DNA of 64,000 bases from Candidatus Eiseniibacteriota bacterium. Its GTDB lineage: Bacteria > Eisenbacteria > RBG-16-71-46. Positions 31,493 to 53,361 of the stretch are shown here, piece by piece (positions within the stretch are counted from its first letter, which is position 1; every line of letters starts with the position of its first letter). Both the position numbers and the translations under genes were made by a program. Where the stretch lies: positions 1,216,001 to 1,280,000 of the forward strand of contig OY970342.1 of NCBI GenBank assembly GCA_963717505.1, given 5' to 3'. The notes under the pieces are model-generated. The model was not told the DNA's origin and searched no databases. It saw nothing but the letters and a program-made list of their open reading frames with translations.

Positions 31493-33454
31493 CTAAGGCA
31501 ACACGATGATGCGCTGGACGGCGTGGTGCCCCGGGGTGGTGAAGCGCGCGAAGTAGAGCCCGGGCGGGGTGCGCCCGCCCGCCGCGTCCCAGCGGACGTC
31601 GTGACGGCCCGCCTCGAACGTGCGATCAGCGACCGTGGCCATCAAGCGTCCGGTGAGGTCGAAGACCTCGATGCGCACCGGGGCCACGGAAGGCAATTCG
31701 AAGTGCAGGGTCGTTTCGCGCGTGATCGGGTTCGGCCGCGCCGGAAAGAACTCCACGGCCGCCGGCAGATGGTCCCCGACGCCCGTGGTGGTTACCGGGC
31801 GTGCGCGCAGCAGCACGACCAGGTCGTTCTGCGTTGCGGCGCCGGGCAAGGGCTCGTCGGAGGACTCGAAGGTCAGCAGCGCTTCGTAGGTTTGATCGAG
31901 CGTGGCGCCGTCGTCGTCGAAGTGGATGTTGTACGTGCGCCCCACACCCGCGACCAGCCCGCCGCTGAACCCGCCGACGATCGAGAAACGGCCGCTGCCG
32001 CCGACGATGCTCCCACCATCGAGCGAGAGACGCGCCTGGAGCGCGTCGTAACCGGCGTTGTGCACGCGGACACTGCTGTCCCGGAAGCCACCCAGCTCGC
32101 GGGCGCCAAGATACAGCGTGTCGATCGGCACCAGCGCGCTCGAGTCGAGCGAGGCCACGGCGTGGTCGAGCACCGTGCCGGTGAGCGAGACGTTCGCAGT
32201 CGGCAGATCGACGTCGTCGCTGGCGATCGCGAGGGTCCCAGCCTTGGGGCCGGCAGTCGCCGTCGACATGCCGATCGGGTGGACGTTGCCCGGGGACCCG
32301 GTCAGGGCCTCGAACGAACCCGCCGGAGCCGTGAACCCTGCCGGCGGCGTCATCGAATAGGTCAGCGCATCGACCGGCAACAGGGTTCCGACGTTTTCGA
32401 CCGTCAGGTTCTGGCTCGCGGCCCCGCCCACGATCGCAGCCCCCAGGTCGAGCGCGGTGACCACGCCGATCTTGGCCGGGAGCTGCAAGGTGGCAACCAC
32501 CGGCAGGTGATCGGCGGCCAACTTCAAGGCGTCGGCGACCGCGAGCGGGACGGCGTCATTGCGGCCGTCTTGATTCACCGACTCGTTGAAGTGCTGGCCG
32601 TCGTTGCCATAGGGCGCCTGGCTGACGAACTCGACTTTTTGGCCATCGGCCATCGCGTACGAATGAAGGAAGAAATCGAAACGGTCGTCGAGTCCGCCGC
32701 CGCTCTGACCTGCAAGGCACCCGGAGGCGCACGGCGCCTGCGAGTGGAAGAAGCGATAGGCGAATTGATTCCAGGTCCCGGGCAACGTGGCGGAATCACG
32801 TAGGCGGCCGTCGTCGTCGGCCTGGTCCTCGAGCAGGCGGAGGTAGCCGCCCTCCCAGTCCCCGTAGAAGTTGGTGTCGCCGCCCAGCAGCAGGTTGGGG
32901 ATCGCGGGCGACTGCACATTCAGCGTGTTGCGCAGGTTGGTGCACTCGGTTCGCCGCGTCGCCGAATCCGCCAAGGTGTTTCCGGCCTTGAAATGAACGG
33001 AGTAGATGCGCAGGCGGGCCTGGCTGTTGGTGTAGCCGCGCGGAGTGATCACCGCCTGGTAGACGTCGCGTGGTCCCCCAGTGACCAGTCCGGCGAGGTT
33101 GGCGATCCCCGAGACGGTCAACGAGTCGTAGTACAACGTGCTCTCGGTGCTGAGCAGGAATCCCGCGTTCTTCCACACCCGACTCGAATTGGTGTTGCGC
33201 AGCACGTTGATCAGGAAGGAATCGGCGCCGGCTGGCGTCGCCAGTTCCTGCACGATCAGGACGTCGGTATCGAGATTCTGCATGACCGTCCGGAACAGCG
33301 GCTGCCGGGTGCTCAGGGCGCTGCCCGGGTACTGCCAGAGATTCCAGGTCGTGACCTTGAACGCATGCGCCGTCGAGGCCCCGAGCAGCGCGATCCCGAC
33401 GGCGCACCAGACCGGGCCCCGAGGACGTGACTTCCGGCGCATCGTCGGGGGCAT
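31493..33454 (-). CDS. secreted endonuclease/exonuclease/phosphatase (EEP) with Ig-like and FlgD/T9SS-like C-terminal domains
   Basis: TWNL, VQE, HFKA, GDTN, DDRFD, ADHLPV; PNP..FDLTGR..W..GLYF tail. Confidence 0.88.
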   Translation of the reverse strand: MPPTMRRKSRPRGPVWCAVGIALLGASTAHAFKVTTWNLWQYPGSALSTRQPLFRTVMQNLDTDVLIVQELATPAGADSFLINVLRNTNSSRVWKNAGFLLSTESTLYYDSLTVSGIANLAGLVTGGPRDVYQAVITPRGYTNSQARLRIYSVHFKAGNTLADSATRRTECTNLRNTLNVQSPAIPNLLLGGDTNFYGDWEGGYLRLLEDQADDDGRLRDSATLPGTWNQFAYRFFHSQAPCASGCLAGQSGGGLDDRFDFFLHSYAMADGQKVEFVSQAPYGNDGQHFNESVNQDGRNDAVPLAVADALKLAADHLPVVATLQLPAKIGVVTALDLGAAIVGGAASQNLTVENVGTLLPVDALTYSMTPPAGFTAPAGSFEALTGSPGNVHPIGMSTATAGPKAGTLAIASDDVDLPTANVSLTGTVLDHAVASLDSSALVPIDTLYLGARELGGFRDSSVRVHNAGYDALQARLSLDGGSIVGGSGRFSIVGGFSGGLVAGVGRTYNIHFDDDGATLDQTYEALLTFESSDEPLPGAATQNDLVVLLRARPVTTTGVGDHLPAAVEFFPARPNPITRETTLHFELPSVAPVRIEVFDLTGRLMATVADRTFEAGRHDVRWDAAGGRTPPGLYFARFTTPGHHAVQRIIVLP

Positions 33455-33459
33455 TCGGG

Positions 33460-35477
33460 CTACTTCACGACGGCGAAGCGAACGACCGTGCGCCGCTCGT
33501 CGCCGGTCATGCGCAGGAAGTAGACGCCCGGCCCGAGCGGGGCACCGCCGTCGCGCACTGCCCGCCACGAGAGGGCGTGCCGGCCCGGCTCGAAGCTGCG
33601 ATCCACGGGGGTCGCCACGCGCCGGCCGGCCAGATCGAGGACGTCGAGACGCACCCGTCCGGCACGCGCGAGGTCGAAGCGCAGGGAGGCCGCACCGGAG
33701 AGCGGATTGGGCGCCGGCGCCAGCAATCGGGTGACCGACGGGAGGGGCTGATCGGGCGTCGAGACCGACGGGCTGCGTACGATCCCACGCAGCGCGATCA
33801 CCAGATCGGCGTGGGTTTCGGCGCCGGGCAGCGACTCGTCGGCGCTCGCGATCCGCATCTCGCCCGTGTAGACCACGTCGGGCACGGCGCCGCCTTCGTC
33901 GAAGCGCACGGTGTAGGTCCGACCGACGCCGGCAAGCAGCGCGTCACCGCCGTCGACCACCGTGAACAGCGGGCTGCCGGTGATCGAAGGCTCCTGAACT
34001 TGAAGCCGAGCCTGGTTCGCGTCCCAGCCGAAGTTGTGAATACGAAGGTCACGGTCGGCGAGGGTGCCGGACTCGCCGTCGAACGCGAGGGAGTCGGCCC
34101 CATTGGCGATGACGCTCGAGTCGAGCGAAGCCACCGAGTGATCGAGAATCGTCGCGAACAGGTCGATGTCGTAGAACGGCGCATCGGCAGCGTCCGAGGT
34201 GACCGTCAGAATGCCGGCACGCGGACCCAACTCCCCGGGGTCGTGGCGATGGTGACGATCTCGCTCTGGCCCGGCGGAATCTCGCCGCCCGCGGGGGCGA
34301 GAAAACCCTCGGACGTCGACAGCGTGTAGGTCAGCCCGTCGGCCGGCGCCACGGCGGGGTTCGTGATCGTCAGATCGGCGCTGCCATCCCCGATCAGCGT
34401 GCCGAAATCGAGCTCGACGGCGGCATTCAGGATCGCCGGCAACCGGAGGTCGACGCGGATCGGCAGATGGTCCGCCGACATCTTTAAGGCATTTGCGTAA
34501 GCCGCGCCCTCGGGCAAGGTTGGAGCGTCCGTGATGTTCAGGTTGAAGTGTTGCCCGTCGTTGCCGACCGGAATGTAGGTATTGACCAGGAGTTCGAGCC
34601 CGTTGCCGTCGTTCAGCGCATAGGTGGGCAGGAACATGTCGAAACGATCGTCGAGCCCGCCGGTGGCGGCGCCACTCGCGCACGGGGCGGCGAGGCACGG
34701 ACTCTGGGTGTGGATCGCCGCGAGGCTGGCTGTGTTCCAAGTGCTCGCTGGAGCGTTCAGCGGGTCGTAGAGCCGGCCGTCGTCGTCCGCCTGGCTCTCC
34801 TTGAACTTGAGAAACGCCGGCTCGTTGCCCGTGTAAATGTTGAAGTCGCCCATGAGGATCGCATGGGTGCCGGGCGGCATGGCGTTCATGCTGTCGCGAA
34901 TGCCGATCGCCTCGGCGTGTCGCTGAGCCACATCGCCCGAGGTGTTGCTGGCCTTCAAGTGCTGCGAATACACGCGGAACTCGGCGGCGTCACTCGAGTA
35001 CCCGATCGGCCTCAGGCGATAGCAGTCGACCAAACGAAGGTTGGTCGCTGGATTCGGGTACCAGCTCCAGTGGCCCAGCAACTCGACGCTCGCCGGTTTG
35101 TAGAACAGCGCATTGTTGGTGTCGTTGCCGTCGTTGAAGGGTGCGGCGACCCACTGCCCCGGCTCCATCGTGTTGAGCACGTTGGTGAGAAAGCCGTCGA
35201 CACCGACCTGGCTCTGCATTTCCTGGACGACGACCACCTCGGCGCCGAGCGGCTCGAAGATGGTGCGAAAGAGGGGATTGCGGGTCGGCCCACTGGGGCC
35301 GGGGTAATTCAGGATGTTGTAGTTGACGATCCGGAGCGCCAGGGACTCCGAGGTCGCCATCAGCGCGAAAGCGGCGCTGATCGCCAGGACGCGCGCGATG
35401 GCCGCAGAACTGCGGCGGAATCGCGGGGAAATCGGCAAGAACGAACCGTCACCGGGACGGGCCATATCGGGGGCCAT
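33460..35477 (-). CDS. second secreted EEP paralog; frameshift near 34235
   Basis: NYNIL, VQE, HLKA, GDFN, ADHLPI; the 33460-frame C-terminal half matches the neighbour (DHSVASLDSS, DESLPGA, PNP tail). Confidence 0.85.
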
Positions 35478-35665: not shown

Positions 35666-35908
35666 CTATTCGATTAGCACGAAGGCGCAGATCGCCTCGG
35701 CCCCGCCCTGAAACGACGGGTCGTGGGCCGCGAGAATTCGAGCAAACGCACACACCTTGTGCGCCCAGCGGGAGGACCAATCCGGCTGCGGGTCGATCAC
35801 AACCGGGCGCTCGGGCGCGGCGTGGCTCTCGGCCCGCACCGTGCCCGGGGTCAGGAGGATCAAGGCGAGTCCCACGACGCCGACCGCACGGCGAAAGGAT
35901 GTGGACAT
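35666..35908 (-). CDS. small secreted two-Cys peptide (array ORF4, 80 aa)
   Basis: GAGG RBS; signal ending TVRA; core VCAF..GGAEAICAFVLIE. Confidence 0.7.
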   Translation of the reverse strand: MSTSFRRAVGVVGLALILLTPGTVRAESHAAPERPVVIDPQPDWSSRWAHKVCAFARILAAHDPSFQGGAEAICAFVLIE

Positions 35909-35933
35909 GGACGTGCCTCAGGGGGGCGAGGGA

Positions 35934-36059
35934 TCAGATGTCGTTGGCGATGATGAACGCGCACAGCATGGCGCCACCCCAGCGATCGATCAGGCTGCCG
36001 ATCGACAGGCCATAGGCGCAGACCACCACGCCACACCAGGAAGCCAGGACTTCGTTCAT
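35934..36059 (-). CDS. small leaderless Cys-containing peptide (array ORF3, 41 aa)
   Basis: GAGG RBS, ATG 36059; MNEVLASWCGVVVCAYGLSIGSLIDRWGGAMLCAFIIANDI. Confidence 0.6.
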   Translation of the reverse strand: MNEVLASWCGVVVCAYGLSIGSLIDRWGGAMLCAFIIANDI

Positions 36060-36094
36060 TGGGTCCTCGAGCGCGGGGGCGGGTCCAAGTCGAA

Positions 36095-36373
36095 TCAGCG
36101 TCCGGGGGAGAAATAGTCTTCGAGGTCGACGTGAATCGCGTAGAGACACGCTCCCAACGCGAGCCCGCCGACGCCGGGAACCTCCCAGGCGATCTTCCAA
36201 CTAACTCGGCACACGGCCCAGGACAAGCGGGTTTCGTTGCGCCGGGCTGCCTCGGCATCGGTGGTCGCCGAAGAGCTGTCGGGAGTTTCGGGCGCGGAAT
36301 CGGCGGACCCCACGCGTGCGAACGGCAGCGCGAGCAGGCCCGCGAGGATCAGGGGGGCGAGACGGCGAACCAT
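36095..36373 (-). CDS. small secreted two-Cys peptide (array ORF2, 92 aa)
   Basis: GGAG RBS; signal MVRRLAPLILAGLLALPFA; core VC..PGVGGLALGACL..HV. Confidence 0.7.
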   Translation of the reverse strand: MVRRLAPLILAGLLALPFARVGSADSAPETPDSSSATTDAEAARRNETRLSWAVCRVSWKIAWEVPGVGGLALGACLYAIHVDLEDYFSPGR

Positions 36374-36412
36374 GTGGGGCTCCATCCCGGGGGACGACGG
36401 CGGGGGCGTGAC

Positions 36413-36541
36413 TCAGAGATTGTCGAGGGCTTCCAGTACGTGAAGCACCAGGCACGCGAGACCACTCGCGGCGCCGACGATCGGGATCCAGCGAAGCGGG
36501 CTTTCGAGGCTGCAGAGGGCGGCGATGGCCCCGTTGAACAT
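36413..36541 (-). CDS. small leaderless two-Cys peptide (array ORF1, 42 aa; not in the ORF track)
   Basis: GGAGGT RBS; MFNGAIAALCSLESPLRWIPIVGAASGLACLVLHVLEALDNL, translated by hand. Confidence 0.65.
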   Translation of the reverse strand: MFNGAIAALCSLESPLRWIPIVGAASGLACLVLHVLEALDNL

Positions 36542-36740
36542 GACGATACCTCCGGGGGATGGGTCACCGGGGGCGGTGTCGACCGGCGGGCGGGATGTCC
36601 GTGGGTCGACGTCACCGGCGGGGCAAGTCGGGGTGACGGCGCCGCTACCGGTTGGAGTCGCCGCTACAGCACGGCGCGTGCCGGGCGAGCCAACTCGATG
36701 GGGGCAATTCCCGCCGCGATCGAGCCCGACCCAGGAAGGC

Positions 36741-37505
36741 TCAGCGCGTGTCGCCGTTCCCGCGCACGCGATCCCACAGGATTTTCAGCGGATCGTAGAA
36801 CCGATCCACCACCCGCTCCTTGAGCGGGATGATCGCGTTGTCGGTGATGTGAATGCTCTCGGGGCAGACCTCGGTGCAGCACTTGGTGATGTTGCACAGG
36901 CCGAGGCCACCTTCGTCGCGCACGAACTTCAGCCGATCGGCGCCGTCGATGGGGTGCATCTCGAGCCCGGCGATGCGCACGAAGAAGCGAGGTCCGGCGA
37001 ACTGGTGCTTGAGTTCGTGGCTGCGCAGCACGTGACACACGTTCTGGCACAGGAAGCACTCGATGCACTTGCGGAATTCCTGGGCGCGGTCGACGTCTTT
37101 CTGCTCCCAGCGCCACTCGGCGCCGGCGCGCGGCGTGAACGGCTGAATGCGCTGGTTGACCTCGTAGTTCCACGACACGTCGGTCACCAGGTCCTTGATG
37201 ATCGGGAAGGTCTTCATCGGCCGCACCGCCACCGGCTGGTCGTGCGGCATGTGGTCGAGCCTGGACTTGCACATCAGCGCCGGCTTGCCGTTGACCTCGG
37301 CGCTGCACGAGCCGCACTTGGCCGCCTTGCAGTTCCAGCGCACCGCGAGATCCGGGGCCTTGTGCCCCTGAATCCAGTGAATCGCGTCGAGCACGACCAT
37401 TCCGGGCTCGACCGGCACGTCGTAGCTCTCCATGTGGCCGCCGGAGGCGTCGCCGCGAAACACCTGCATCTGGATCTTCCGGTTCGCCGTCGCAGTGTCG
37501 CTCAT
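36741..37505 (-). CDS. sdhB: succinate dehydrogenase/fumarate reductase Fe-S subunit
   Basis: CKAAKCGSC, CIECFLCQNVC, CNITKCCTEVCP. Confidence 0.93.
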   Translation of the reverse strand: MSDTATANRKIQMQVFRGDASGGHMESYDVPVEPGMVVLDAIHWIQGHKAPDLAVRWNCKAAKCGSCSAEVNGKPALMCKSRLDHMPHDQPVAVRPMKTFPIIKDLVTDVSWNYEVNQRIQPFTPRAGAEWRWEQKDVDRAQEFRKCIECFLCQNVCHVLRSHELKHQFAGPRFFVRIAGLEMHPIDGADRLKFVRDEGGLGLCNITKCCTEVCPESIHITDNAIIPLKERVVDRFYDPLKILWDRVRGNGDTR

Positions 37506-39322
37506 CCGACCTTCTCCTTGGCGGGCTCGAACAGAACTTTCAGCTCCTCGGGCATCACGGGCAGCGGCGTCGGCCCAACATTCATCCCGGCACCACTCAG
37601 CCGCGCGCACATGTTCACCGTCGAGAACTCGGCGCTCGGTTTGGGGAAGTCGAGGCGTGAATGCGCACCGCGGCTCTCCTTGCGAAGCAACGCGCTGCGA
37701 GCGATGACTTCGGACACCGTGATCAGACGCAGCAGGTCGCGGCTCATGTGCCAGCCCGGGTGGAAGACCCGCGAGCCCTCGACACGCACCGTCTGCGCCC
37801 GGCGCTTGATCTCGGCCAGCTCGCCGATCACCGCCTCGAGGTCGGATTGTATCCGGAAGATCCCGACTCGGGTCTGCATGGTCTTCTGCAGGTCGCGGTG
37901 CACCGCGTACGGGCTCTCGCCCTGCGCGCGCTCGAACGGCGCCAGCATCAGGCGGATCTCGTCGTGGACTTCGGGCTCGCTGACGCTCGGTGCGGAGGCG
38001 AGTCCCTTGGCGTACTGCGCGGCCGCGAGCCCGGCCCGGCGGCCGAACACGATCAGGTCCGACAGCGAGTTCCCTCCCAGACGATTGGCGCCGTGCAATC
38101 CGGCGGCGACTTCGCCGGCGGCGTAGAGACCGGGCACGGTCGCCGCCGCGGTGTCGGGCTCGACCCGAATGCCACCCATCATGTAGTGCATGGTCGGGCC
38201 GACTTCCATCGGCTGCTTGGTGATGTCGACGTCGGCCAGCTCCATGAACTGGTGGTACATCGACGGCAGCTTCTTCTGCACGCGGTCGGACGGCATGTAG
38301 CTGATGTCGAGGTAGGCACCACCGTGCGGCGTGCCACGACCTTCCTTGACCTCGGTGTAGATCGCACGCGCGACGTTGTCGCGGGTCGAAAGCTCGGGCG
38401 GGCGGCGTGCTTCCGTCTGGCGTCCGGCAACCGCGGCCTCGACCCAGGCGCGCGCTTCGGCCTCGTCTTCGGCGTACTCGTGCTTGCGCTCCTCGGGCAG
38501 GTACTTCCACATGAAGCGCTCGCCCTTCTGGTTGCGCAGGATGCCGCCCTCGCCGCGCACACCCTCGGTGACCAGGATGCCCATGACGCCCGGCGGCCAC
38601 ACCATGCCGGTCGGGTGGAACTGGACGAACTCCATGTCGATCAGCTCGGCGCCCGACTCGAACGCCAGCGACTGCCCGTCGCCGGTGTATTCCCACGAGT
38701 TGGAGGTGATCTGGAATGCCTTGCCGACGCCGCCGGTGGCGAGCACAATCGCTCTTGCTCGGAACAGCACGAACGTGCCGGTGGCGCGCCAGTAGCCGAC
38801 CGCACCCGCGATTCGCCCGCCGTCGAGGAACAGCCGCGTGATCGCGCACTCCATGTAGGTCTGAATGCCCTGATGTACGGCACGGTCCTGCAACGTGCGG
38901 ATCATCTCGAGCCCGGTGCGATCGCCGACGTGCGCCAGACGCTTCCAGGTGTGACCGCCGAACGCGCGCTGGAGAATCTTGCCGTCCTCGGTGCGATCGA
39001 ACAGCGCGCCCCAGTGCTCGAGCTCGCGAACGCGATCAGGTGCTTCCATCGCGTGGAGCTGCGCCATGCGCCAGTGATTGAGGAACGACCCGCCCTTCAT
39101 GGTGTCGCGGAAGTGAGTCTGCCAATCATCCTGGGGATCGACGTGGGCCAGTGCCGCAGCGACCCCGCCCTCGGCCATCACCGTGTGCGCCTTGCCGAGC
39201 AGCGATTTGGTCACGAGTCCGACCGAAGCACCTTGGGCCGCGGCCTCGATCGCGGCGCGCAGCCCGGCGCCGCCGGCGCCGATCACCAGAACGTCGTGTT
39301 CGTGGACTTCGTACTTCTCCAT
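37502..39322 (-). CDS. sdhA: succinate dehydrogenase/fumarate reductase flavoprotein
   Basis: GAGGAG, AHTVMAEGG, QFHPTG, HGANRLGGNSL, ESRGAH. Confidence 0.95.
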   Translation of the reverse strand: MEKYEVHEHDVLVIGAGGAGLRAAIEAAAQGASVGLVTKSLLGKAHTVMAEGGVAAALAHVDPQDDWQTHFRDTMKGGSFLNHWRMAQLHAMEAPDRVRELEHWGALFDRTEDGKILQRAFGGHTWKRLAHVGDRTGLEMIRTLQDRAVHQGIQTYMECAITRLFLDGGRIAGAVGYWRATGTFVLFRARAIVLATGGVGKAFQITSNSWEYTGDGQSLAFESGAELIDMEFVQFHPTGMVWPPGVMGILVTEGVRGEGGILRNQKGERFMWKYLPEERKHEYAEDEAEARAWVEAAVAGRQTEARRPPELSTRDNVARAIYTEVKEGRGTPHGGAYLDISYMPSDRVQKKLPSMYHQFMELADVDITKQPMEVGPTMHYMMGGIRVEPDTAAATVPGLYAAGEVAAGLHGANRLGGNSLSDLIVFGRRAGLAAAQYAKGLASAPSVSEPEVHDEIRLMLAPFERAQGESPYAVHRDLQKTMQTRVGIFRIQSDLEAVIGELAEIKRRAQTVRVEGSRVFHPGWHMSRDLLRLITVSEVIARSALLRKESRGAHSRLDFPKPSAEFSTVNMCARLSGAGMNVGPTPLPVMPEELKVLFEPAKEKVG

Positions 39323-39346
39323 GCGCCGAGTCCCTGTCGCCCGTGC

Positions 39347-40249
39347 CTAGAGCCCGAGTGGCGTTGAAGTGGTGAACAGATCGAACGGGAAGATCACCCA
39401 GTCCTGAATGACTCCCATCGAGCACAGGCGAACGTAGAGATCGGCGAAGCAGACGCCGCCGAGACTCCACCATGCCCAGCCCATGTGGTGCTCGTTGAGG
39501 GCACTGACCACGCTCCAGGTCTTGTGGCGTGGCCCGCCGGCCGCGACGCACGAGAAGCAGTCGAGCTTCCCGCCGATCAGGTGGCGCAGCGAGTGGCACG
39601 ACAGCGTGTACATGGTCAGGAGCCCAGTGCTCGCCAGGATCGCCAGCGTGCCGCCGCCGATGCCGAAGCGCGTGCCGGTCGGGGTCACGAAGATTGCGGC
39701 TTTGATCACGTCCCACCACAGAATGACGAGGATGATGAGCGCCGCATAGAGGAAGTAGCGGTGCACGTTCTGCAGGATGAACGGGAACTTGGTCTCGCCG
39801 CAGTAGTCCTGCGGCCGCTCGCCAACCGCGCAGGCGACCGGGTCGGCGAAGAACGACCGGTAGTAGGCCTTGCGGTAGTAGTAGCAGGTGGTGCGGAAGC
39901 CGAGCGGGAAGATCAGGATCAGGAGCGCCGGCGAGAACCACTGCGGCAGCCACGACGGGCGGATGTAGGGCGAGAAGAACGGCGACAAATAGTGTCGGCC
40001 GTTTTCGAGGTAATGGTGGTGGCCCTCGCCGAGGATCGCGGCGTAGTTGGCGTAGCCGATCAGGAGTACCAGCCCGGTGGCCTGGAGAACCGGGATCAGC
40101 CACCAGAGGTCGGTGCGGTCGGTCTGGCCGAAGGATTCCTGGGCACCGCGGCCAGGGTGGGCGCCCTTGGGCGTTGCGCCGGTTGTGCTTGGCCCACGCA
40201 TTGAGCCGGCGGCAGCACCTCCCGACCAGCGACGATCGCGATCAGCCAT
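39347..40249 (-). CDS. Sdh1-type (Rv0249c-like) membrane anchor subunit
   Basis: FRTTCYYYRKAYYRSFF, QNVHRYF, SCHSLRH, HMGWAWWSL; first gene of the operon. Confidence 0.85.
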   Translation of the reverse strand: MADRDRRWSGGAAAGSMRGPSTTGATPKGAHPGRGAQESFGQTDRTDLWWLIPVLQATGLVLLIGYANYAAILGEGHHHYLENGRHYLSPFFSPYIRPSWLPQWFSPALLILIFPLGFRTTCYYYRKAYYRSFFADPVACAVGERPQDYCGETKFPFILQNVHRYFLYAALIILVILWWDVIKAAIFVTPTGTRFGIGGGTLAILASTGLLTMYTLSCHSLRHLIGGKLDCFSCVAAGGPRHKTWSVVSALNEHHMGWAWWSLGGVCFADLYVRLCSMGVIQDWVIFPFDLFTTSTPLGL

Positions 40250-44357: not shown

Positions 44358-45148
44358 CTAGCGCTTCATCAGTTGGTCGTAGATGATCTGGTAGGACTTC
44401 GGACTGATCCCCAGGTCGCCGCGGAATGGGCGATCGAACGCGAGCACCACGAAGATCACCAGCGCCATGAAGGCGGCGAGCAGGACGACGAGGATGAGGT
44501 GCAGTCTCGGATCTTCGACGCGAAAGAAGCACGACGCGAGCAGTGCGATCACCGCGCCGCCGAGGATCACCGACCACATGGCGCCGGGGAGAGCGATGCG
44601 CACCGAGTCGAGCCGTATGCGACGCGATCTCGATCATCCGGTTGTAGGCGCGACAGGGTTTCGGCGTGCAGGATCTTCTGGCCTTCGGTGGCCGGCTCGA
44701 AATTGTGAGATCGCTTGAAGCTCGTCCAGCGCAGAACGACCGCGCCGCGCGGCAACCGCCCCGCCTGCTCTCGGGCCACGCTTCGCGGATCAGGTATCGA
44801 GGTGTAGTTCCTGCAGCGCGTCCCTGAGCGCAGTCTGGATCGGCGCCGGGTAGCTTCTGACGTCACGGTAGAGCGCCGCGATGGCCGTCGCTTCCTGCGA
44901 GACCACTTTCGAGTGTCCGAGTACGTTTGCCAGACGTTGACCGCGATCAGGGCGACCGCGAGCCCGTAAAACACCATGATCGCCTGGACGATGGCGCCGC
45001 TGAATTCCGAGTCCTCGGTCCGAATTCGGAGCGAGGCAGAACGAATCGGCGCACGATCAGGAGCCCGCCGGCGGCGAACAGTCGCCAGCGTGAGGATCAG
45101 AGCCGGTGCGGCGATCACCAGGGGGATGTCGAACAGGAAGTTGAACAC
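44358..45148 (-). pseudogene. DUF4239-like membrane protein with several frameshifts
   Basis: VFYGLAVALIAVNVWQ..FEPATEGQKILHAE..LAFDRPFRGDLGISP spread over different frames; may be assembly error. Confidence 0.7.
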
Positions 45149-45238
45149 GGGGGCAGGATGCAGTGGAAGTCCAGCCCGGATCAAGACGAAGTCAACGCTG
45201 GCCAAGGCTGGCTCCGGGCTCCTCGCCAACGGCACCGG

Positions 45239-45385
45239 TCAGGGGCGCCAGTCCACGGAGAGTCCGGTTGGCCAGTTCGGCTGCGTGATCACAACGCCCG
45301 TCAGGATCAGGACCCCCAGCAGCAAGACTCCGAATACGAGCCGAGCCGTGAGGTCCATGATTGCGTGATGGGTCGTTGCCGTCAT
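45239..45385 (-). CDS. 48-aa single-TM protein (not in the ORF track)
   Basis: GGAAGAGG RBS; MTATTHHAIMDLTARLVFGVLLLGVLILTGVVITQPNWPTGLSVDWRP. Confidence 0.5.
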   Translation of the reverse strand: MTATTHHAIMDLTARLVFGVLLLGVLILTGVVITQPNWPTGLSVDWRP

Positions 45386-45421
45386 CTGTGCCTCTTCCGC
45401 GGTCACTGGGCGTGTGTCGGA

Positions 45422-45925
45422 CTAACGCGAGCGCCAGCCGTGGAAGGTGATTCCACCGAGGAGCGCAAACTGCGAGAATTCGCTTGCCGTGTAGCGCCCC
45501 TCGAAGAAGTAGTGAACCGCCGGCGCCGGGATCCGGAACCCGCCGATCAGGTTGAGTCCCAGTTGCGTGTCAGACTGGTTCGACCGCTCATCGTCAATGA
45601 AGTTGACGCCGAGGCCGGCACCGACGTACGGAGTCACCTGACCCTCGGCCATGAAGTGATAGTAAAGGTCGGCATTGGCGCTCAGATCGCCGACGTCGTT
45701 GGTCTTCCAGTACATCACGTTCGGGATCAGGTGCAGGCGGGAGCCATGTTGCTCGAACTCCATGTGTCCGGCCACCGCGATGGTTCCGTCGAGGTTCTCA
45801 GGCGTCAGGTACCCGAGCTTCCCTCCGAATCCGGTCAGGTTGAAGGCACTCGCCGGCGGCGGCGTGGCGAGGATCCCGACCAGGCAGATGCAGGCGAGGA
45901 ATGACAACAACAAGGTGATTCTCAT
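45422..45925 (-). CDS. outer-membrane beta-barrel protein (OmpW/OmpA-barrel-like)
   Basis: Signal peptide, TPYVGAGLG, alternating beta strands; AAGGA RBS. Confidence 0.8.
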   Translation of the reverse strand: MRITLLLSFLACICLVGILATPPPASAFNLTGFGGKLGYLTPENLDGTIAVAGHMEFEQHGSRLHLIPNVMYWKTNDVGDLSANADLYYHFMAEGQVTPYVGAGLGVNFIDDERSNQSDTQLGLNLIGGFRIPAPAVHYFFEGRYTASEFSQFALLGGITFHGWRSR

Positions 45926-45988
45926 GATGTGGTTCCTTTCGAGGTGATCTGTGTGCTTCATGAACCAGTTGCCAGGGTCTCAAGCACC

Positions 45989-46060
45989 GCAGGAAGGGTG
46001 CCAGCGCCCGGTCGACCACCTCGATTCGCCCCGAGTGTGTTGCGGCGGAAGGCTTGGCGG
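45989..46060 (-). promoter_or_regulatory. sigma54 promoter within a 72-bp repeated element (copy 1)
   Basis: Minus-strand TGGCACCCTTCCTGC at 45989-46003; 58/72 ungapped identity to 50431-50502 (hand count). Confidence 0.75.
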
Positions 46061-46178
46061 TCTTGAACATCCCTGTGGCGGGAACCTGATCGACGCCCAG
46101 CTCACCGACGGATGAGGACAATCCTCCAACGCGTCGAATTCCATACAACTGGGATGTCAGGGACTGTCGAGGTCAGCT

Positions 46179-46367
46179 TCAGCCGATCTGGATATTCCTG
46201 ATATTGCCGAACAGCCCGAACACGTTGAGCACCCACAGGACTACGGCGATCACAGCCACGACGTTCATGATCCGTTTGATCTTGCCGTCCATCGGGATAT
46301 AGCTGTTGGCGAGCCACAGCAAGACTCCCATGACGACCAGGGTTACGAGAACGTTCACCAGTGGCAT
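46179..46367 (-). CDS. Thivi_2564-like small membrane protein
   Basis: MPLVNVLVTLVVMGVLLWLANSYIPMDGKIKRIMNVV; GGAG RBS. Confidence 0.85.
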   Translation of the reverse strand: MPLVNVLVTLVVMGVLLWLANSYIPMDGKIKRIMNVVAVIAVVLWVLNVFGLFGNIRNIQIG

Positions 46368-46473
46368 ATCAAACTCCAGTCTTGGGCGACCCGTGCTTCG
46401 CGGCAACCGAATCGGTCGCATTACTCCGGTTGCATGCCCCGCATCGTGCTGCGCGGTGGCGCCTTGGATGAAA

Positions 46474-46488
46474 GCATCATCCATGCCG
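46474..46488 (-). promoter_or_regulatory. candidate sigma54 promoter
   Basis: CGGCATGGATGATGC with correct GG/GC spacing, about 107 nt upstream of 46367. Confidence 0.45.
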
Positions 46489-46737
46489 TCCGGCCGTCGA
46501 CAGATCAATTGGGGCGGGACTCGCGTGTATTCGGAAGGTTCAGACGGCAGCGGCGGGGTCTGCTATGGGAAACCGCCGGGATGAGTGCCAAGGCCACGGC
46601 TCGAGCGGCAGGATCTCCGATCTTTTTGGAATAACCGGCACCCGTTTCCCTTGCCGGACGGGCTTCAAACGTCACCCGGTCACAGCCATGGGGCGTGTTT
46701 GGGCGCTTTGTCCCCTGTTCCCCCACCGACGCGCAAT

Positions 46738-46752
46738 TGGCCCCGGGCTTGC
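46738..46752 (+). promoter_or_regulatory. candidate sigma54 promoter
   Basis: TGGCCCCGGGCTTGC, about 100 nt upstream of 46855. Confidence 0.6.
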
Positions 46753-46854
46753 GAGTACGGTTCGTGCCCTGGACTCGCGCGCTATCGCGAGTCCGGACGA
46801 ATACCGAATCGGCTACTGGGCTGGTTTGGAATCACGCCACCTTGGAGGTGTTCC

Positions 46855-47394
46855 ATGTCGGACAAACTGACGGATCTGCAGCAGCCGATGATGGCTCGCA
46901 CGTTCCGTGATCGCGAATCCGCCGAACGTGCCTACGCTGCAATCACAGCACGCGGGTATAAGCATGATGAGATTCATCTCCTGATGTCAGATGAGACTCG
47001 CAGCCGCCTGTTCACCAAAGACGATGAGAAGACCGACATGGGCCACAAGGCGCTCGAGGGAGCCGGGGTCGGCGGCGCGGTCGGCGGGGTCGTCGGCGGC
47101 GCGGTGGGTGCCACCCTGGTGGGCTTCGCGGCGGCGGCAGCGGCATTGGCCATTCCGGGCCTTGGGCTCGTGATTGTCGGTCCGCTGGCGGGCGCCATTG
47201 CCGGAGCCGCCGCAGGCGCGACAACGGGAGGGTTGGTCGGCCTACTCGTGGGAGCCGGAATCCCTGAGGAGCGCGCCAAGGTCTACGAGACCGAGCTGAA
47301 GGAAGGCGGGATCGTTCTGGGCGTCCAGCCTCGTCATGAGGCCGATGCTCGGTACTTCGAAACCGAGTGGCAGGAACAGGTCACTCGCACGTAG
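46855..47394 (+). CDS. general stress protein-like glycine-zipper membrane protein
   Basis: GGAGG RBS; EGAGVGGAVGG..IPGLGLVIVGPL..GIPEERAKVYE..GGI. Confidence 0.85.
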   Translation: MSDKLTDLQQPMMARTFRDRESAERAYAAITARGYKHDEIHLLMSDETRSRLFTKDDEKTDMGHKALEGAGVGGAVGGVVGGAVGATLVGFAAAAAALAIPGLGLVIVGPLAGAIAGAAAGATTGGLVGLLVGAGIPEERAKVYETELKEGGIVLGVQPRHEADARYFETEWQEQVTRT

Positions 47395-47593
47395 TTCGAT
47401 CACTGCTTGAAACGGGCGCCCCTCTGGGGCGTCCGTCTCTCGACCGTCATGTCAGACCCCACGAGTCGATTTTCGGGGTTGTGTTGAAGGTTCCAGACGG
47501 CCATCCTTGTCCCGCGACGCGAGAACCCGCGGGGGCAAGGCAGCCGGGCCAGAAGAACGCGGCGCCGATCGTCACCCCGTGCTGGAGTCGAGA

Positions 47594-49577
47594 ATGACGA
47601 ACTCGAAAGGTTCAAAGGACGAACCCAAGCCCAGGCGCGAACCCGTTGGCGGAAAGCCTGTCGCTGCAGGCCGAGCGGAGCAAGCCCCGGGTGATGCGCG
47701 GGTGTCCCTCGACGAAAATGCTCGGGCTTGGATTACCAGCCTGACCGCCACGCCGCCCTCGGCGAGCATCGCCCAGCTGCGGGTCGGCGAACTCGAGGAG
47801 GCCGAGAGCAAGCTCGCGTCCACCCACGAACAGCTCCGGCAGGAAATCTCGGAACGCGAGCGAATTGCAGCAGAAGCACGGGAAGCAGAGCGAGTCCTGA
47901 GGGAGGTGCGCGAGCGCTTCGAGACCGCGTTCGACAATGCTCCGATCGGCATGGCGCTCATCGCCATGGATGATCGCTGGCTGCAGGTCAATGATGCGCT
48001 GTGTCGGATCACCGGTCACACCGAGGAAGACCTGAAGGCGACGACGCTTCGGGCGATGACACATCCCGACGACATAGAACTCGACATACAGAGTGTGCAG
48101 CAGCTCCTGGCCGGCCAGATCCCCAGCTACCAGGTCGAGAAGCGGTACCGCCACGCTTGGGGTCATCATGTCTGGGTCTTGGTGACCGCATCGATCGTCC
48201 GCGACGAAGATGGAAGTCCTCTATATGTCGTTACGCAAGTCCAGGACATCTCGGAACGAAAAGAGCTCGCGCGGCGCCTCGAGTACCTCGTGGATCACGA
48301 CTTTCTGACCGGTTTGTTCAACCGGCGACACTTCGAGCAGGAGCTCACAAAGGAGACCGATCGAGTGGCCCGCTATGGGGGTCCCGGAGCCGTACTCGTC
48401 ATCGATCTGGACAACTTCAAGGACGTCAACGACTCCTTTGGTCACAAGGCCGGCGATGATGTGCTCAAGGGAGTGGCGGGGCTGTTGAGGGAGCGCCTGC
48501 GCCAAACGGATCTCGTGGCGCGGATCGGCGGTGACGAGTTCGCCGTGCTCCTTCCACAGACCGACGCCGACCAAGCACAGAGCATGGCCGACGAGCTGGT
48601 CAAGGCCCTGGGCCGGCAGGTCGCCGTGCTCGCCGATCGGTCGATCCATATCACGGCAAGCATCGGCGTCACGCTGTTCGAGGGGCTGACGGACATCGAG
48701 GTGCTCGCCTACGCTGACCTCGCCATGTACGAGGCCAAGGAGGCCGGGCGTAATCGGTTCGCGATCTATCGGCCGGCTCCGGACGGTAAGGAGCGAGGGT
48801 CCAGGCGGCTTGCCGAAGCGGAGCGGATTCGCAACGCGCTCGAGGAAGATCGCCTGATCCTTCACTGTCAGCCGATCCTCGATCTCGGCAAGAACGAAAT
48901 CTGTCAGTACGAACTCTTGCTCCGCCTCCCGGACGATCTGAGGACGGAACCGCTCCGTCCCAGCGCCTTTCTCTACGCCGCCGAGCGCTTTGGCCTGATC
49001 CAAGCCATCGACGGCTGGGTCGTGCGCAAGGCGATCGCCCTGATTGCCGAACACGCGCGGGCAGGGCTCAAGCTGGTGCTCAACGTCAACCTGTCGGGCA
49101 AGTCCATCGGAGACCGCAAGCTGGCGGCGCTTGTCGAGGAGGCTTTGACGGAAACCGGAATCGATCCCGCGCGATTGATCTTCGAACTGACCGAGACGGC
49201 GGCGATCGCCAATATCGAGGACGCCAAGGCCTTCGCAAGCCGACTACGTGGCCGGGGCTGCCAGATTCGCCCTGGACGACTTCGGCGCTGGGTTCGGCTC
49301 CTTCTACTACCTCAAGAACTTCCCCTTCGACTGCCTCAAGATCGACGGCGACTTCATCCGCGGCATCACCACCAGCGCGATCGACCAGCTCGTGGTTGAA
49401 GCCATCGTCAGCATCGCGCGGGGAATGGGGAAGAAGACCGTCGCCGAGTTCGTGGCCGACGAGGAGACAGCGGACCTTCTCCGAAGGATCGGAGTCGACT
49501 GCGCCCAGGGCTATCACATCGGCATGCCGAGACCGGTATCCGAGATGCTTCGTGTCGGGGGGTCCGCGCTGGTTTGA
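47594..49577 (+). CDS. PAS-GGDEF-EAL protein; frameshift near 49264
   Basis: FDNAPIGM PAS, RIGGDEF, ELLLR, ELTE; DDFGAG..KIDG..QGYH in the next frame. Confidence 0.9.
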
Positions 49578-49598
49578 CGCCCGCCGGCGGCGGCCGGT

Positions 49599-50351
49599 CT
49601 ACCGATACCGAGTCTTGATCATGGCCCACGTCGCTCTGATTGTGGGCGTTGCCGTGTCGCCAGGGCTGGTGATGCTGTTCGAGTCCATGGTCACCGCACC
49701 CGTTTGCGCCAGGGCCCTGCCCGAGAGGACGGCACCGGTATTGAGTGTGATGCTCGCGCTGGCGAGAATATTGCCCTGCGTCGAGGAAGATATTCCGAGA
49801 GTCGCGGAGCTACCGACTTGCCACCAGACATGTCGATTCTGGGCGCCATTGGACATGATCACTGAAGATAAGTCGGCGCCTGTGAGTGTGCTCCCAATTT
49901 GGAAAACGAATTCGGCGCCCGGGTCGCCCTGGCCGTCGAGAGTAAGGGTTCCTGTCAACGGGACCGATGACGAAAAACAATAGACGCCCGGCCCGAGCGT
50001 CTTCCCGCCCAGATCCTGGCCGGTCATGTCGGTACCGCACGCCATGCTTGCCAGCAGATTGTATGCAGTGGTGAGGTCATCCTGAGCCTGTGCAGCGACG
50101 GGATCGCCAGCGTGAATCGTTCCTTCGGTGGGCTGCCCCGCAGGAAGGCCGGTAATCGCAGTGCCGGGGCTCACTCCCACATCCGCGTTGATTGTCGTCG
50201 CGCCGGTATTGGTGATCGTTGAGCCGGCCAGCACAGCGAAACTCGCCGCGGAGCCCAACCCGGACTGGGCGAATCCGAGTGAAGGGAGGAATAGCAACAC
50301 CGCCAGTCCAGCGCCGGCCACGATGGTCGAGTGCCGATATTCATGATTCAT
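49599..50351 (-). CDS. secreted DUF3494 (ice-binding-like) protein with TWxxIKxxYR tail
   Basis: FAVLAGSTITNTG, LGPGVY, FVFQIGSTL, WQVGSSATLG; GGAGG RBS. Confidence 0.9.
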   Translation of the reverse strand: MNHEYRHSTIVAGAGLAVLLFLPSLGFAQSGLGSAASFAVLAGSTITNTGATTINADVGVSPGTAITGLPAGQPTEGTIHAGDPVAAQAQDDLTTAYNLLASMACGTDMTGQDLGGKTLGPGVYCFSSSVPLTGTLTLDGQGDPGAEFVFQIGSTLTGADLSSVIMSNGAQNRHVWWQVGSSATLGISSSTQGNILASASITLNTGAVLSGRALAQTGAVTMDSNSITSPGDTATPTIRATWAMIKTRYR

Positions 50352-50430
50352 GAGGAACCTCCGCGACGGCGAGAAGTGGTCCAACAATCAGGATGGAATG
50401 TCGTCCACAAATGCCAGCCCTCGCGTTGCT

Positions 50431-50502
50431 GCAGGAACAGTGCCAGCCACCGGTCGACAACCTCGATCCCGGCCCATCGCGTTGTGGCGGAAGGCTTGGC
50501 GG
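50431..50502 (-). promoter_or_regulatory. sigma54 promoter within a 72-bp repeated element (copy 2)
   Basis: Minus-strand TGGCACTGTTCCTGC at 50431-50445. Confidence 0.75.
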
Positions 50503-50656
50503 CTTTCTATCTCCGCCGCGGCGGGTACCTAATCCGCGCCCTGACCCCGGCCGGAAGAGGAGAGTCTTCCAACGCAGCGAAATCCATGCAACCGGGCGAG
50601 AGGAAGTCGTCCCGGCCTGAGGGGGACCGGGGGTTCGCGGATGTGAGCGCTTCGCC

Positions 50657-51130
50657 TCAGCGCCCGCCCGACGTCACCTCTGCCAGCGTGGCCCGGTAGA
50701 CCGAGTCACGCCCTCCGCCTGCAGCCACGGCGCGCCCGGCGAGCGCACGGGCCTCATCCAGGCTCCGCCCTTGTCTGAGCAAAGCGATCGCCAGGTTGTT
50801 CATCGCGTCGTAATCCGTCGTGGAATCGCTGAGCGCTCGCCGGTAGCACTTCTCAGCGCTGCTCCAACGCCCTGCCGCAGCCTCGATGTTGCCAAGGTTG
50901 ACGCGCGCCCGGGATTGGTGGGGATCGAGCTTGAGAGCCTTGCGGTACTCCTTCGCTGCCAGATCGAGCTTGCCGCTCGACTCGTATACGACGCCGAGGT
51001 CGTTGTGCTCGCTAGCCGTCAGCGGGTCGTGCAGCACCACCAGATGGGCGCAACCCGATAGTGCGGCAACCCATACCGACGCCAGCGCGAGCGCGACCAC
51101 GACCGGGCGGGCGAGGCCCCGCGCATTCAT
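50657..51130 (-). CDS. TPR lipoprotein
   Basis: LSGC lipobox; HNDLGVVYE, ARVNLGN, AMNNLA. Confidence 0.88.
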   Translation of the reverse strand: MNARGLARPVVVALALASVWVAALSGCAHLVVLHDPLTASEHNDLGVVYESSGKLDLAAKEYRKALKLDPHQSRARVNLGNIEAAAGRWSSAEKCYRRALSDSTTDYDAMNNLAIALLRQGRSLDEARALAGRAVAAGGGRDSVYRATLAEVTSGGR

Positions 51131-51648
51131 GGTGACACTCTTCGGATGATCAGCGCCTGCGAACCCGCCGTCCGCCACCGTTTCGCGAGCTTGTCACCGT
51201 CCACAACGCTCGGTCGGGCCCCGCCATCATTCAGGCTGAAGGCCTCGCGTGCGGGATCCCAACCGGTTACCACCCCAAAGTGTGCGACCGTAAGCGGGGC
51301 TCGCCCGCTCTGGTAGAGGACGATAGGTGGCACTCCCAACACGAGCAGAGCGACCAACGAATCGGGGGTGAGGGTCGCGACCGTGGCGTCGTAGCCGGCT
51401 CGGCGCGCGGCGGCTGCGAGGTCTGTGATGAGCGACCCGCGCAGGATGGGATCGTATGCACTGTCTGCTTCATGAAGTGCCGCGGCGTCGGCGCCGTAGT
51501 AGCGCAACACCATTTCGAGCGCGGCCTGGCCGCAACGCTCGCGCTCCTGCACCACGATCGGTACGTCCAGGTCCACCACGGCCGCGGCCAGCCCGGAACC
51601 GGTGCCCGGCGAGGCTCCTAGCAGCAAAGCCACCAGCAGGCTCAGCAT
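51127..51648 (-). CDS. C39-like cysteine peptidase (PA2778-like), catalytic residues intact
   Basis: LDVPIVVQERERCGQAALEMVL, AHFGVVTGWD; signal peptide. Confidence 0.85.
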   Translation of the reverse strand: MLSLLVALLLGASPGTGSGLAAAVVDLDVPIVVQERERCGQAALEMVLRYYGADAAALHEADSAYDPILRGSLITDLAAAARRAGYDATVATLTPDSLVALLVLGVPPIVLYQSGRAPLTVAHFGVVTGWDPAREAFSLNDGGARPSVVDGDKLAKRWRTAGSQALIIRRVSP

Positions 51649-51685
51649 CGTTTCACGGGCAATGCCTTGTCTCCGTGTTTGAGAA

Positions 51686-51835
51686 TCACAGCACCTTCCG
51701 GCCCTGAATGACACGAATCAGCACGACGATGATGGCGATGACGATCAGAATGTGGATGAAGCCACCCATCGTGTAGGACGTCACCAGACCGAGCAACCAA
51801 AGAATGATGAGCACGACCGCAATCGTCCACAGCAT
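51686..51835 (-). CDS. lmo0937-like small membrane protein (49 aa; not in the ORF track)
   Basis: GGAGGT RBS; MLWTIAVVLIILWLLGLVTSYTMGGFIHILIVIAIIVVLIRVIQGRKVL. Confidence 0.88.
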   Translation of the reverse strand: MLWTIAVVLIILWLLGLVTSYTMGGFIHILIVIAIIVVLIRVIQGRKVL

Positions 51836-52216
51836 CTGCTACCTCCCATGTTCTTCGATGGACGCGCCAGCGACGGTGTATGAGTCGACCCTGAAGCCGT
51901 CCTGTGCGGCCAGCGAGGAACGATAGAGAGTCTCCGCCCGCGCACGGAACGAACGCAACAGAAAATGCGAGTTAGCTCTCGAGCCGGACACAAGCGTGAC
52001 GTTGCAGTACCGCCTCAGACCCTGCGACTACCCAACCGTGTCCTTCCGAAGGACCTGGGGCTTTGAAGATCCCTGCCCTTCCTTTGCAGTTCATTGCTGC
52101 GCTGAAGGTCGTTCGTCGTCTTCCTTCCCTTTCAGGGGGCGAGTCCGGAGCAGGCGGAAAGCCCCCAAGCAGAGCGGCAGCACGGATCTAGCGGCAACCG
52201 GGAGGTAGCTTCCACC

Positions 52217-52236
52217 GCTGGCACCATTCGTGCGCT
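52217..52236 (+). promoter_or_regulatory. sigma54 promoter
   Basis: GCTGGCACCATTCGTGCGCT, identical to 60585-60604. Confidence 0.75.
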
Positions 52237-52296
52237 TCGAATGGGTCTGAAGCGGCAATGCCTTACTTGCGGTCCCCCTACTCTGAGGAGTTGTCC

Positions 52297-53361
52297 ATGC
52301 GTCATGCACACGTAGTTCGTCGATCACGCCCGGTCGCGGCGTGGTTCCTGGCAGTCCTTCTGATCGCGATGGCTGGATGCAGTTCGGATTCCGAAAACCC
52401 GGTCGGTCCTGGAGACACCGTGGCACCGACAATTAGTGCCACCAACCCGCTCAATGGCGCGATAGGCGTGGCGGTGATCACCGCTTCGTTCAGCGAGGCA
52501 ATGAACGCCTCTACGATTACGACGGGGAGCTTCGGCGTGAACGGGCCCGGCGCGACGCCAGTGGTTGGGACCGTCGCGTATGATGCGTCGACGAACATCG
52601 CGAGATTCACCCCTACAGGCGCCCTCGCGGCTGGTACGGCATACACGGCGACGGTCACGACCGGGGTCAAAGATGTCGCCGGGAATTCCCTGGCGAGTAA
52701 TCAGGCATGGAGCTTCACGACGTCGTCGACGGCAGGTGCCCAGCTGGCGCCGGCTCTCGGCGATGCGGGAGGCTTCGTGATTCTCGCGGGTTCGACGGCG
52801 ACGAGCACCGGCGCCACCGCGTTGACGGGCGACATGGGCGTCAGCCCCGGGACCGCAATCACCGGCTTCCCGCCGGGAACCCTGTCCGGCACGATCCACG
52901 CGGGAGATGTTGCCTCAGCGTCCGGCATGACGGACCTCACCACCGCATACAACGACGCCGCAGGAAGAACGGTCGGGCCGGTCAGTGTGGCCGGGAATCT
53001 CGGCGGGCTGACCCTGCCCCCGGGCCTCTATAAGTCCACGTCGTCACTTGCGATCTCCTCAGGCGATCTCACGCTCGACGCACAGGGCGACCCGAACGCC
53101 GTCTTCTTGTTCCAGATGGCATCGACGCTGACCACGACCTCTGGTCGTGCGGTGATCCTGAGTGGAGGTGCGAAGTCATCGAACGTGTTCTGGCAGGTCG
53201 GAAGTTCGGCGACCCTGGGAACCTCCTCCACCTTCAAGGGCACGATCATGGCCAATCAGTCGATCACTCTGAATACCGGGGCGACGCTGAATGGCAGGGC
53301 GCTGGCACGGATTGGCGCGGTAACGATGGCCGGCAATGCGGTGGTAATGCCAACGCCATAA
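52297..53361 (+). CDS. lipoprotein with Ig-like (Big_5) domain and DUF3494
   Basis: MAGC lipobox; ASFSEAMN..WSFTT; LPPGLYK..FWQVGSSATLG. Confidence 0.9.
   Translation: MRHAHVVRRSRPVAAWFLAVLLIAMAGCSSDSENPVGPGDTVAPTISATNPLNGAIGVAVITASFSEAMNASTITTGSFGVNGPGATPVVGTVAYDASTNIARFTPTGALAAGTAYTATVTTGVKDVAGNSLASNQAWSFTTSSTAGAQLAPALGDAGGFVILAGSTATSTGATALTGDMGVSPGTAITGFPPGTLSGTIHAGDVASASGMTDLTTAYNDAAGRTVGPVSVAGNLGGLTLPPGLYKSTSSLAISSGDLTLDAQGDPNAVFLFQMASTLTTTSGRAVILSGGAKSSNVFWQVGSSATLGTSSTFKGTIMANQSITLNTGATLNGRALARIGAVTMAGNAVVMPTP

Follow-up and report, generated by a model that had tools for sequence, protein, structure and literature searches.

The DNA analysed here (the window) is a stretch of 64,000 nucleotides, C1:1216001-1280000, in a genome of 4.16 Mb that is assembled as a single contig (G000, the source genome). 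Four small genes on its minus strand form an array downstream of sdhB, which codes for the Fe-S subunit of succinate dehydrogenase (36741..37487, minus strand) and marks the site of insertion. They are ORF1 (36413..36541; 42 amino acids), leaderless and hydrophobic with two cysteines, C10 and C30; ORF2 (36095..36373, with an alternative start at 36385; 92 or 96 amino acids), which has a signal-like N-terminus, an acidic spacer and a hairpin core; ORF3 (35934..36059; 41 amino acids), a leaderless hairpin peptide with core cysteines C14 and C33; and ORF4 (35666..35908; 80 amino acids), in which a signal-like N-terminus is followed by a hairpin core with C53, C74 and a D-P-x-F turn. Signal peptides of these and all related precursors were assigned by eye. 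Downstream of the array is a gene for a secreted EEP-family phosphoesterase with a FlgD-like Ig end (33460..35477, minus strand). It consists of two overlapping frames, split near 34206, which may be an assembly error or a real frameshift; there is an intact paralog at 31493-33568, and the copy in a related genome, G031, is continuous (687 amino acids). The succinate dehydrogenase operon (36741-40249, minus strand) includes a 300-residue membrane anchor without a Pfam family match, which we take to resemble the actinobacterial Sdh1 type. Elsewhere in the window, GC content falls from about 0.69 to 0.62 over positions 45000-64000, a possible island, and an IS-like transposase fragment is present near 54350-54844.

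The four ORFs are real genes. We scored all six frames of each with a codon model fitted to 1050 long ORFs of the source genome, and the annotated frame came first every time (0.19, 0.09, 0.37 and 0.09 bits per codon for ORF1 to ORF4, against 0.04 or less for other frames). Each is preceded by a Shine-Dalgarno sequence, GGAG or GAGG, so that the initial annotation of this DNA, made from the letters alone, was right to describe four co-oriented small ORFs with a ribosome-binding site apiece. Taken on their own, the scores of ORF2 and ORF4 are no better than those reached by the top 5-25% of non-coding frames free of stops, and because of this overlap conservation outweighs codon score as evidence. 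Relative to its counterpart in a metagenome (L060), ORF3 differs by 9.7 synonymous and 7.3 non-synonymous substitutions (dN/dS 0.21, from one pair only), and ORF4 has a dN/dS of 0.27 (control gene 0.11; again one pair only). The exact sequence of ORF1 exists on record as a gene call. A scan for promoters and terminators gave no signal above chance. Among RNA runs, three had a share of 0.05, with contigs on the sdhB of other organisms and no real cover of the array.

Two cysteines lie 18 to 20 residues apart in every core, as first noticed; the measured spacings are 19, 20, 18 and 20 for ORF1 to ORF4. The description as two-cysteine peptides holds for the core pair of all four, but ORF3 carries an extra cysteine, C9, which is not conserved (Tyr occupies the site in the homologs P0024, P0034 and P0035). 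The pattern of the array family is C-x(18-21)-C-x(5-6)-[DE] with Pro or Gly in the centre, and one homolog of ORF2, in G031, has Phe in place of the first cysteine. The motifs thought to be shared within the pairs ORF1-ORF2 and ORF3-ORF4 can be aligned only with gaps, and as judged by shuffling the likeness is borderline: with cysteines fixed, 14 of 1000 and 47 of 1000 shuffles, respectively, reach the observed score, in a set of 34 scored comparisons. AlphaFold2 models ORF2 as a helix (residues 42-68), a turn (69-72) and a second helix (73-92), with C59 and C80 placed symmetrically on either side of the turn, at a pLDDT of about 70-78 in the core and 60.6 overall. This helix-turn-helix, together with a related peptide pair that lies beside a CPHC thioredoxin-like gene (see below), supports the idea of a disulfide-stapled helical hairpin. 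For ORF1 to ORF4 no family in Pfam, NCBIfam or PHROGs exceeds its cut-off, in line with the original remark that no described family was recognised; in PHROGs, 24 peptide members gave four single weak matches, and an ESM Atlas search with ORF4 gave no usable match.

A core-profile search of 206 genomes of the phylum, which is Candidatus Eisenbacteria as judged from how homologs of partner genes are labelled, found strong matches only in G000, G008 and G031. We examined 30 sdhB loci, and the array follows sdhB in all three of these genomes and is missing from the other 27 (two of which have no downstream DNA); in G006 the EEP gene comes directly after sdhB. The array of G031 has the order secreted-short-secreted-short and contains ORF2-like, ORF3-like and ORF4-like genes and a fifth, leaderless type (the ORF5 family). 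The array of G008 is secreted-short, made up of an ORF2-like gene and the fifth type, and has no adjoining EEP gene. In L060 the order is ORF2-ORF3-ORF4-EEP, and the EEP gene is downstream of the array in G000, G031 and L060. The arrangement of a short and a secreted peptide, repeated twice, is therefore not conserved: the profile search did recover related arrays in two other genomes of the 206, but not strict pairing. Of what was originally observed, the genes and the cysteine spacing stand and the strictly paired layout does not. Protein searches added three extra homologs of ORF2 and seven of ORF4, with every type represented except ORF1, for which neither the 206-genome profile search nor the protein searches yielded a homolog. 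A search of 61 relatives with the single ORF2 protein gave noise apart from one match (E = 0.085) that was later shown to be real. Scans of metagenomes produced 106 candidates with profile A2, none of them confirmed, and one locus with profile A7. We dropped P0022 and P0026 as repeat artefacts and, after inspection, G042, G101 and the weak A11 matches L066, L069-L071, L073-L075 and L079.

Four of 13 weak matches of a wider profile proved to be real two-cysteine precursors at a second site, between prfA and prmC. The gene order there is prfA, a multi-pass membrane protein, a membrane-anchored CxxC thioredoxin-like protein, peptide A, peptide B, prmC, and we refer to the four inserted genes as the cassette. 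In the source genome it is outside the window, at C1:457283-458870, with a leaderless A of 42 residues and a signal-bearing B of 95. This locus was reached through relatives only; a paralog search of the source genome with the single ORFs had found nothing and so had missed it.

The CxxC gene is present in 66 of the 206 genomes: besides the source genome, 65 of the 88 other members of its family (f1) have it and none of the 117 genomes outside f1. We obtained loci for all 66, and 46 of these span the CxxC gene to prmC. At least two peptides were found by filter in 42 of the 46 and a pair was seen on a second look in G022 and G142, giving 44 of 46. In G001 (L172) and G126 (L161) the CxxC gene stands alone between prfA and prmC, the membrane gene and the peptides are absent, and no B peptide was found genome-wide. 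When 35 genomes without a CxxC match were queried, 30 prmC loci were obtained: at 20 of them prfA is within 200 bp of prmC and there is no peptide, three have other inserts, and seven have no prfA on the locus. One genome without prfA on the locus, G155, has a peptide pair at the start of the contig. The B-peptide profile matches 62 of the 206 genomes, 61 of them shared with the CxxC gene, which is a tally rather than a test because the profile was built from loci linked to that gene and kin are not independent. The CxxC gene of the cassette is not essential, since 23 of the 88 other f1 genomes, several of them near-complete, have no match to it. A contig scan with its protein beyond the phylum gave 397 candidates and no confirmed one, so our distribution counts cover the phylum only. 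Across about 20 genera the cassette is single-copy at one fixed housekeeping site. Mean column identity across the cassette is 32-36%, compared to 57-67% for PrmC among f1 genomes, and such fast divergence of the whole block would fit conflict systems.

Some loci depart from the common form. In G027, where no CxxC gene was found, a gene between prfA and prmC (L210:1520-2188, minus strand) codes for a 222-residue secreted protein that ends in a two-cysteine hydrophobic hairpin, possibly a fusion or replacement form of the cassette. At L209 (G137:C344:3600-16000) an inverted 7.5-kb MoxR-type AAA operon separates the CxxC gene from the peptide pair. Three peptide candidates per cassette occur at L158 (G024, all leaderless), L171 (G005) and L174 (G163), and the CxxC and membrane genes are swapped in order at L104, L162, L169 and L174 (G034, G035, G009 and G163).

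Peptide A has the pattern C-x19-C in most genomes and peptide B has C-G-x(20-26)-C..D. The overall pattern is C-x(17-27)-C-x(5-6)-[DE], an Asp or Glu standing 6-7 residues past the second cysteine in nearly all members; cysteine was part of the peptide filter, so its invariance in the A15 and A16 sets is partly built in. Three doubtful candidates, in G139, G005 and G024, were excluded from the A and B sets. The two peptides are related to each other (88% in hhalign), their sequence types are genus-specific, and their cores are seldom cationic (net charge zero or below in 55 of 58 A cores and 56 of 56 B cores). By eye, the precursors have either Sec-like signals ending in A-x-A or no leader, and none has a double-glycine leader; RR occurs within the first 15 residues of 43 of 110 long precursors. 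Short, leaderless peptides make up seven of the 117 candidates, among them the A peptides of all three array-bearing genomes. At the prfA locus most genomes have a secreted member of the A family; in G000, G008, G031 and G024 the member has no leader. Presence of a leader therefore does not mark opposite roles. The initial annotation had proposed toxin and immunity, or signal and antagonist, for the secreted and short peptides; such roles find no support in the varying order of the arrays and the occurrence of the A family in both forms. Of that interpretation the stapled hairpin is supported, the opposed roles are not, and a multi-peptide system is plausible. A predicted complex of A and B from the source genome (score 0.06, mark 0.32) counts for neither side.

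To compare the array with the cassette, we scored array cores on the A and B profiles against 300 shuffles in which cysteines were fixed and the other residues permuted. None of 300 shuffles matched the score on the B profile for any of the four members of the ORF2 family, and ORF2 ranks third on this profile among 68374 six-frame segments of the source genome. Conversely, 45 of 56 B cores exceed the 95th shuffle percentile on the array profile. Three of four members of the ORF5 family (G031 and G008) resemble A at no more than 2 of 300 shuffles. ORF4 gave 2 of 300 against B (30 for P0020; family range 0-30), ORF3 gave 9 (102 for P0010; family range 7-102) and ORF1 gave 31. On these sequence comparisons the link is firm only for ORF2 and the ORF5 family, and weaker for ORF4 and then ORF3; common descent with the cassette has a high probability for ORF2 and is likely for ORF4 and ORF3, and for ORF1 a link is unsupported. 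Profile-profile probabilities between array and cassette from hhalign are low (15.6%, 2.6%, 0.3% and 31%), and a search of the phylum genomes with the B profile at E = 0.003 did not recover the array.

An element upstream of the genes, CGCCCCC, is to judge by its occurrence an independent, non-coding link between the two loci. In the window it lies, always on the minus strand, upstream of the ribosome site of ORF1 (36569..36575) and upstream of ORF2 (36402..36408), ORF3 (36075..36081) and ORF4 (35922..35928). Besides these four of four, it precedes 6 of 8 of the homologous genes in arrays, and in the cassette it stands before 33 of 58 genes for A and 10 of 56 for B. For comparison, the counts are 0 of 61 for the CxxC gene, 9 of 57 for the membrane gene, 3 of 72 for prmC and 7 of 369 for control genes of the source genome. 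The element may pair with the G-rich ribosome site, for which computed folds are weak. If the array were unrelated to the cassette, its products would be independent small membrane proteins, for example accessory to Sdh or to the EEP protein, that have come to look alike by convergence. The low hhalign values, the unproven links of ORF1 and ORF3 and the constant place of the array behind sdhB are what one would then expect, but most sdhB loci have no array, the G008 array has no EEP gene beside it, ORF2 and ORF5 score above shuffles on B and A, and both loci have the upstream element, so we consider convergence improbable. The array genes appear to be lineage-specific extra paralogs of a family-wide cassette.

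The CxxC protein has about 165 residues and an N-terminal membrane anchor. All 61 sequences contain C-x-x-C, and in 32 of them the motif is CPHC, which is typical of DsbA-type oxidases. The best PDB matches of its profile, the Dsb-type structures 3tdg (E = 0.011) and 8pxe (E = 0.022), are weak and centred on the active site. The protein has in common with these DsbA/DsbG-type proteins the CPHC motif, the N-terminal anchor and this weak active-site match, but it differs from them in its length, in its tie to specific peptide neighbours, and in that none of 49 members matches a thioredoxin or any other family in Pfam. The statement that no modifying enzyme is adjacent is thus correct for the array but not for the related pair of the source genome, which has a candidate oxidase alongside. 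VKOR, a candidate for re-oxidising the CxxC protein, was found in G000, G008 and G031; our searches did not find it in G010 or G013, and DsbB was found in none of the five genomes, so that in cassette-bearing G010 neither was found. The VKOR gene at G000:C1:1414996-1415391, like the one at L219:1907-2689, adjoins or is fused to a DsbA-like C-x-x-C domain that was called as a separate frame. A quite different use of the thiols would be metal or redox carriage, in which a soft metal would be bound by the two cysteines and the acidic residue after them, and the role of the CxxC protein would be to keep the peptides reduced. The near-constant acidic residue fits this, as do the neighbours of the CxxC protein in the Atlas (Thioredoxin_2/Redoxin at 0.94-0.96, including reductases of the Redoxin/AhpC-TSA type). 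We see little chance of it, given that an oxidase motif dominates and that the loci examined contain no metal transporter or sensor.

The cassette membrane protein is modelled as a helical bundle with a pLDDT of 92.6. Fold searches gave no match (best Foldseek E = 0.42, best VIA-align Z = 7.3), from which a new fold does not follow. By eye it looks like a Yip1 protein, but by sequence it does not score as one: none of 51 members matches PF04893, hhalign against three true Yip1 copies gives 0.2%, and a six-frame search of five genomes with PF04893 at E = 1 matched other genes only. Neither fold search listed a Yip1 chain. A true Yip1-family gene of the source genome (C1:3157476-3158123) is unlinked to both peptide loci.

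Several known systems combine small hydrophobic cysteine-containing peptides with a CXXC oxidoreductase: Blp peptides or thermophilin with BlpG, pediocin with PedC, and sublancin with BdbA, in which the oxidoreductases serve bacteriocin maturation according to passages of PMC4919988. It is possible, if somewhat unlikely, that A, B and ORF1 to ORF4 are likewise an unmodified multi-peptide bacteriocin of the Blp/BlpG type, Sec-exported pore formers closed by a disulfide; we would put it no higher that the CxxC protein is a BlpG/PedC-type oxidase and the membrane protein an immunity protein. In favour of this are the existence of those dedicated oxidoreductases (PMC4919988), the Gly/Ala-rich two-cysteine hairpins of 40-50 residues in leaderless and signal-bearing forms, the fast divergence of the cassette, the confinement of extra arrays to one lineage, and the fact that some near-complete genomes lack the block altogether. 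Several peptides per locus are also common to the cassette and Blp-type loci. On the other side, no family matches were found in Pfam (none of 58 A and 55 B members matches any bacteriocin family, nor do ORF1 to ORF4) or in NCBIfam, where 16 proteins gave no bacteriocin profile. Class II bacteriocins of the Blp type carry double-glycine leaders, whereas the cassette precursors have Sec-type signals or no leader; the cores are anionic, and the cassette has neither an ABC exporter nor a regulator. No C39-ABC exporter is linked to array or cassette loci, and none was seen among the flanking genes of the array that were scanned, as the initial annotation had stated. Bacteriocin genes are usually patchy and mobile in distribution, unlike a single copy at one prfA-prmC site in about 20 genera.

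The source genome has two C39-like peptidase hits, in short ORFs 15 and 26 kb from the array (window positions 50657-51714, minus strand, and about 61298-62390, plus strand). They stand alone, one beside a TPR lipoprotein-like gene and the other following a small secreted protein whose C-terminus is hydrophobic, and presumably recall the PA2778/PA2779 arrangement.

Other systems are more distant. The SDP system of Bacillus subtilis exports a hydrophobic peptide with a disulfide, SdpC, by a signal peptide, as the cassette would, but the cysteine spacing in SdpC is far longer and the cassette has two or more peptides; NCBIfam models for SdpA, SdpB, SdpC and SdpI matched none of 16 proteins, which included the membrane protein, the CxxC protein and peptides. 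Conjugative pilins and filamentous-phage coat proteins are hydrophobic helical subunits stored in the inner membrane, made with or without a signal peptide, and in this they resemble A and B. A TraA/VirB2 pilin was rejected, the one match among 16 proteins being a weak TraA hit (P0012, E = 0.021, 14.8 bits against a cut-off of 50), and no pilin assembly genes or secretion ATPase were found in the loci examined. No LanM, LanBC or radical SAM enzyme of modified RiPPs occurs among the flanking genes scanned. Some clusters for leaderless or circular bacteriocins, as far as described in passages of PMC11580447, place small peptides beside a multi-pass Yip1 membrane protein with a supposed immunity or transport role; the cassette differs in that its membrane protein is not Yip1 by sequence and its peptides are anionic and cysteine-paired. 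By analogy, the system would work like peptide-plus-oxidoreductase bacteriocin loci and is not a member of the families tested.

The peptides might instead be secreted, pheromone-like signals, the membrane protein their receptor or processing partner and the paralogs lineage-specific variants. Genus-specific sequence types, export signals and an upstream element that suggests regulated translation are in line with this; against it, the cassette loci examined have no sensor kinase or regulator and the cores are longer and much more hydrophobic than one would expect of a diffusible signal, and we think it has only a slim chance of being correct.

The cassette occurs once per genome, its place among housekeeping genes is fixed, its peptides are anionic, and it has neither exporter nor regulator. 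For these reasons we tentatively favour, at a little under even odds, a role in the cell's own envelope: the peptides would be anionic helical hairpins, stapled by a disulfide, that are exported and then assemble in the membrane of the cell that makes them. Peptide output would be high, owing to strong ribosome sites under the control of the C-rich element. Delivery to the inner membrane's outer face would depend on the Sec signal or, where there is no leader, on the hairpin itself, and there the DsbA-like protein would close one disulfide across the helix-turn-helix; delivery and closure together are probably correct. In the source genome VKOR might then re-oxidise the DsbA-like protein. The stapled hairpins would lodge in the outer leaflet, each with its two acidic ends facing outwards, and A and B would co-assemble as hetero-oligomers; the membrane protein would act as insertase, chaperone or scaffold. 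The product would be part of the envelope of the producing cell, either structural or surface-active. ORF1 to ORF4 would supply variant subunits, relying in trans on this machinery. More speculatively, and on balance doubtfully, the dedicated oxidase and membrane protein would insert and polymerise A and B into a heteromeric coat, channel or filament. It is equally conjectural that such an envelope module is an undescribed, vertically inherited one that handles signal-bearing and leaderless subunits alike, with the sdhB array providing variants.

In the literature searched (titles, starts of abstracts and some passages; supplements lie outside, and tables of PMC7472256 and 10.1101/818815 may list loci) we found no description of the cassette, which is undescribed as far as this search goes and has a fair chance of being a new kind. 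It is a four-gene system, found in roughly three of every four genomes of a single family in an uncultured soil and sediment phylum, and it offers a clear substrate-enzyme hypothesis, with two short peptides, one CPHC protein and one confidently modelled membrane protein. If antimicrobial, its peptides would form a disulfide class that is anionic and either Sec-exported or leaderless, and would come from a phylum that has no described bacteriocin in the literature searched; if structural, it would be a new kind of envelope assembly. Natural leaderless and secreted versions of one core inform how leaderless peptides cross membranes.
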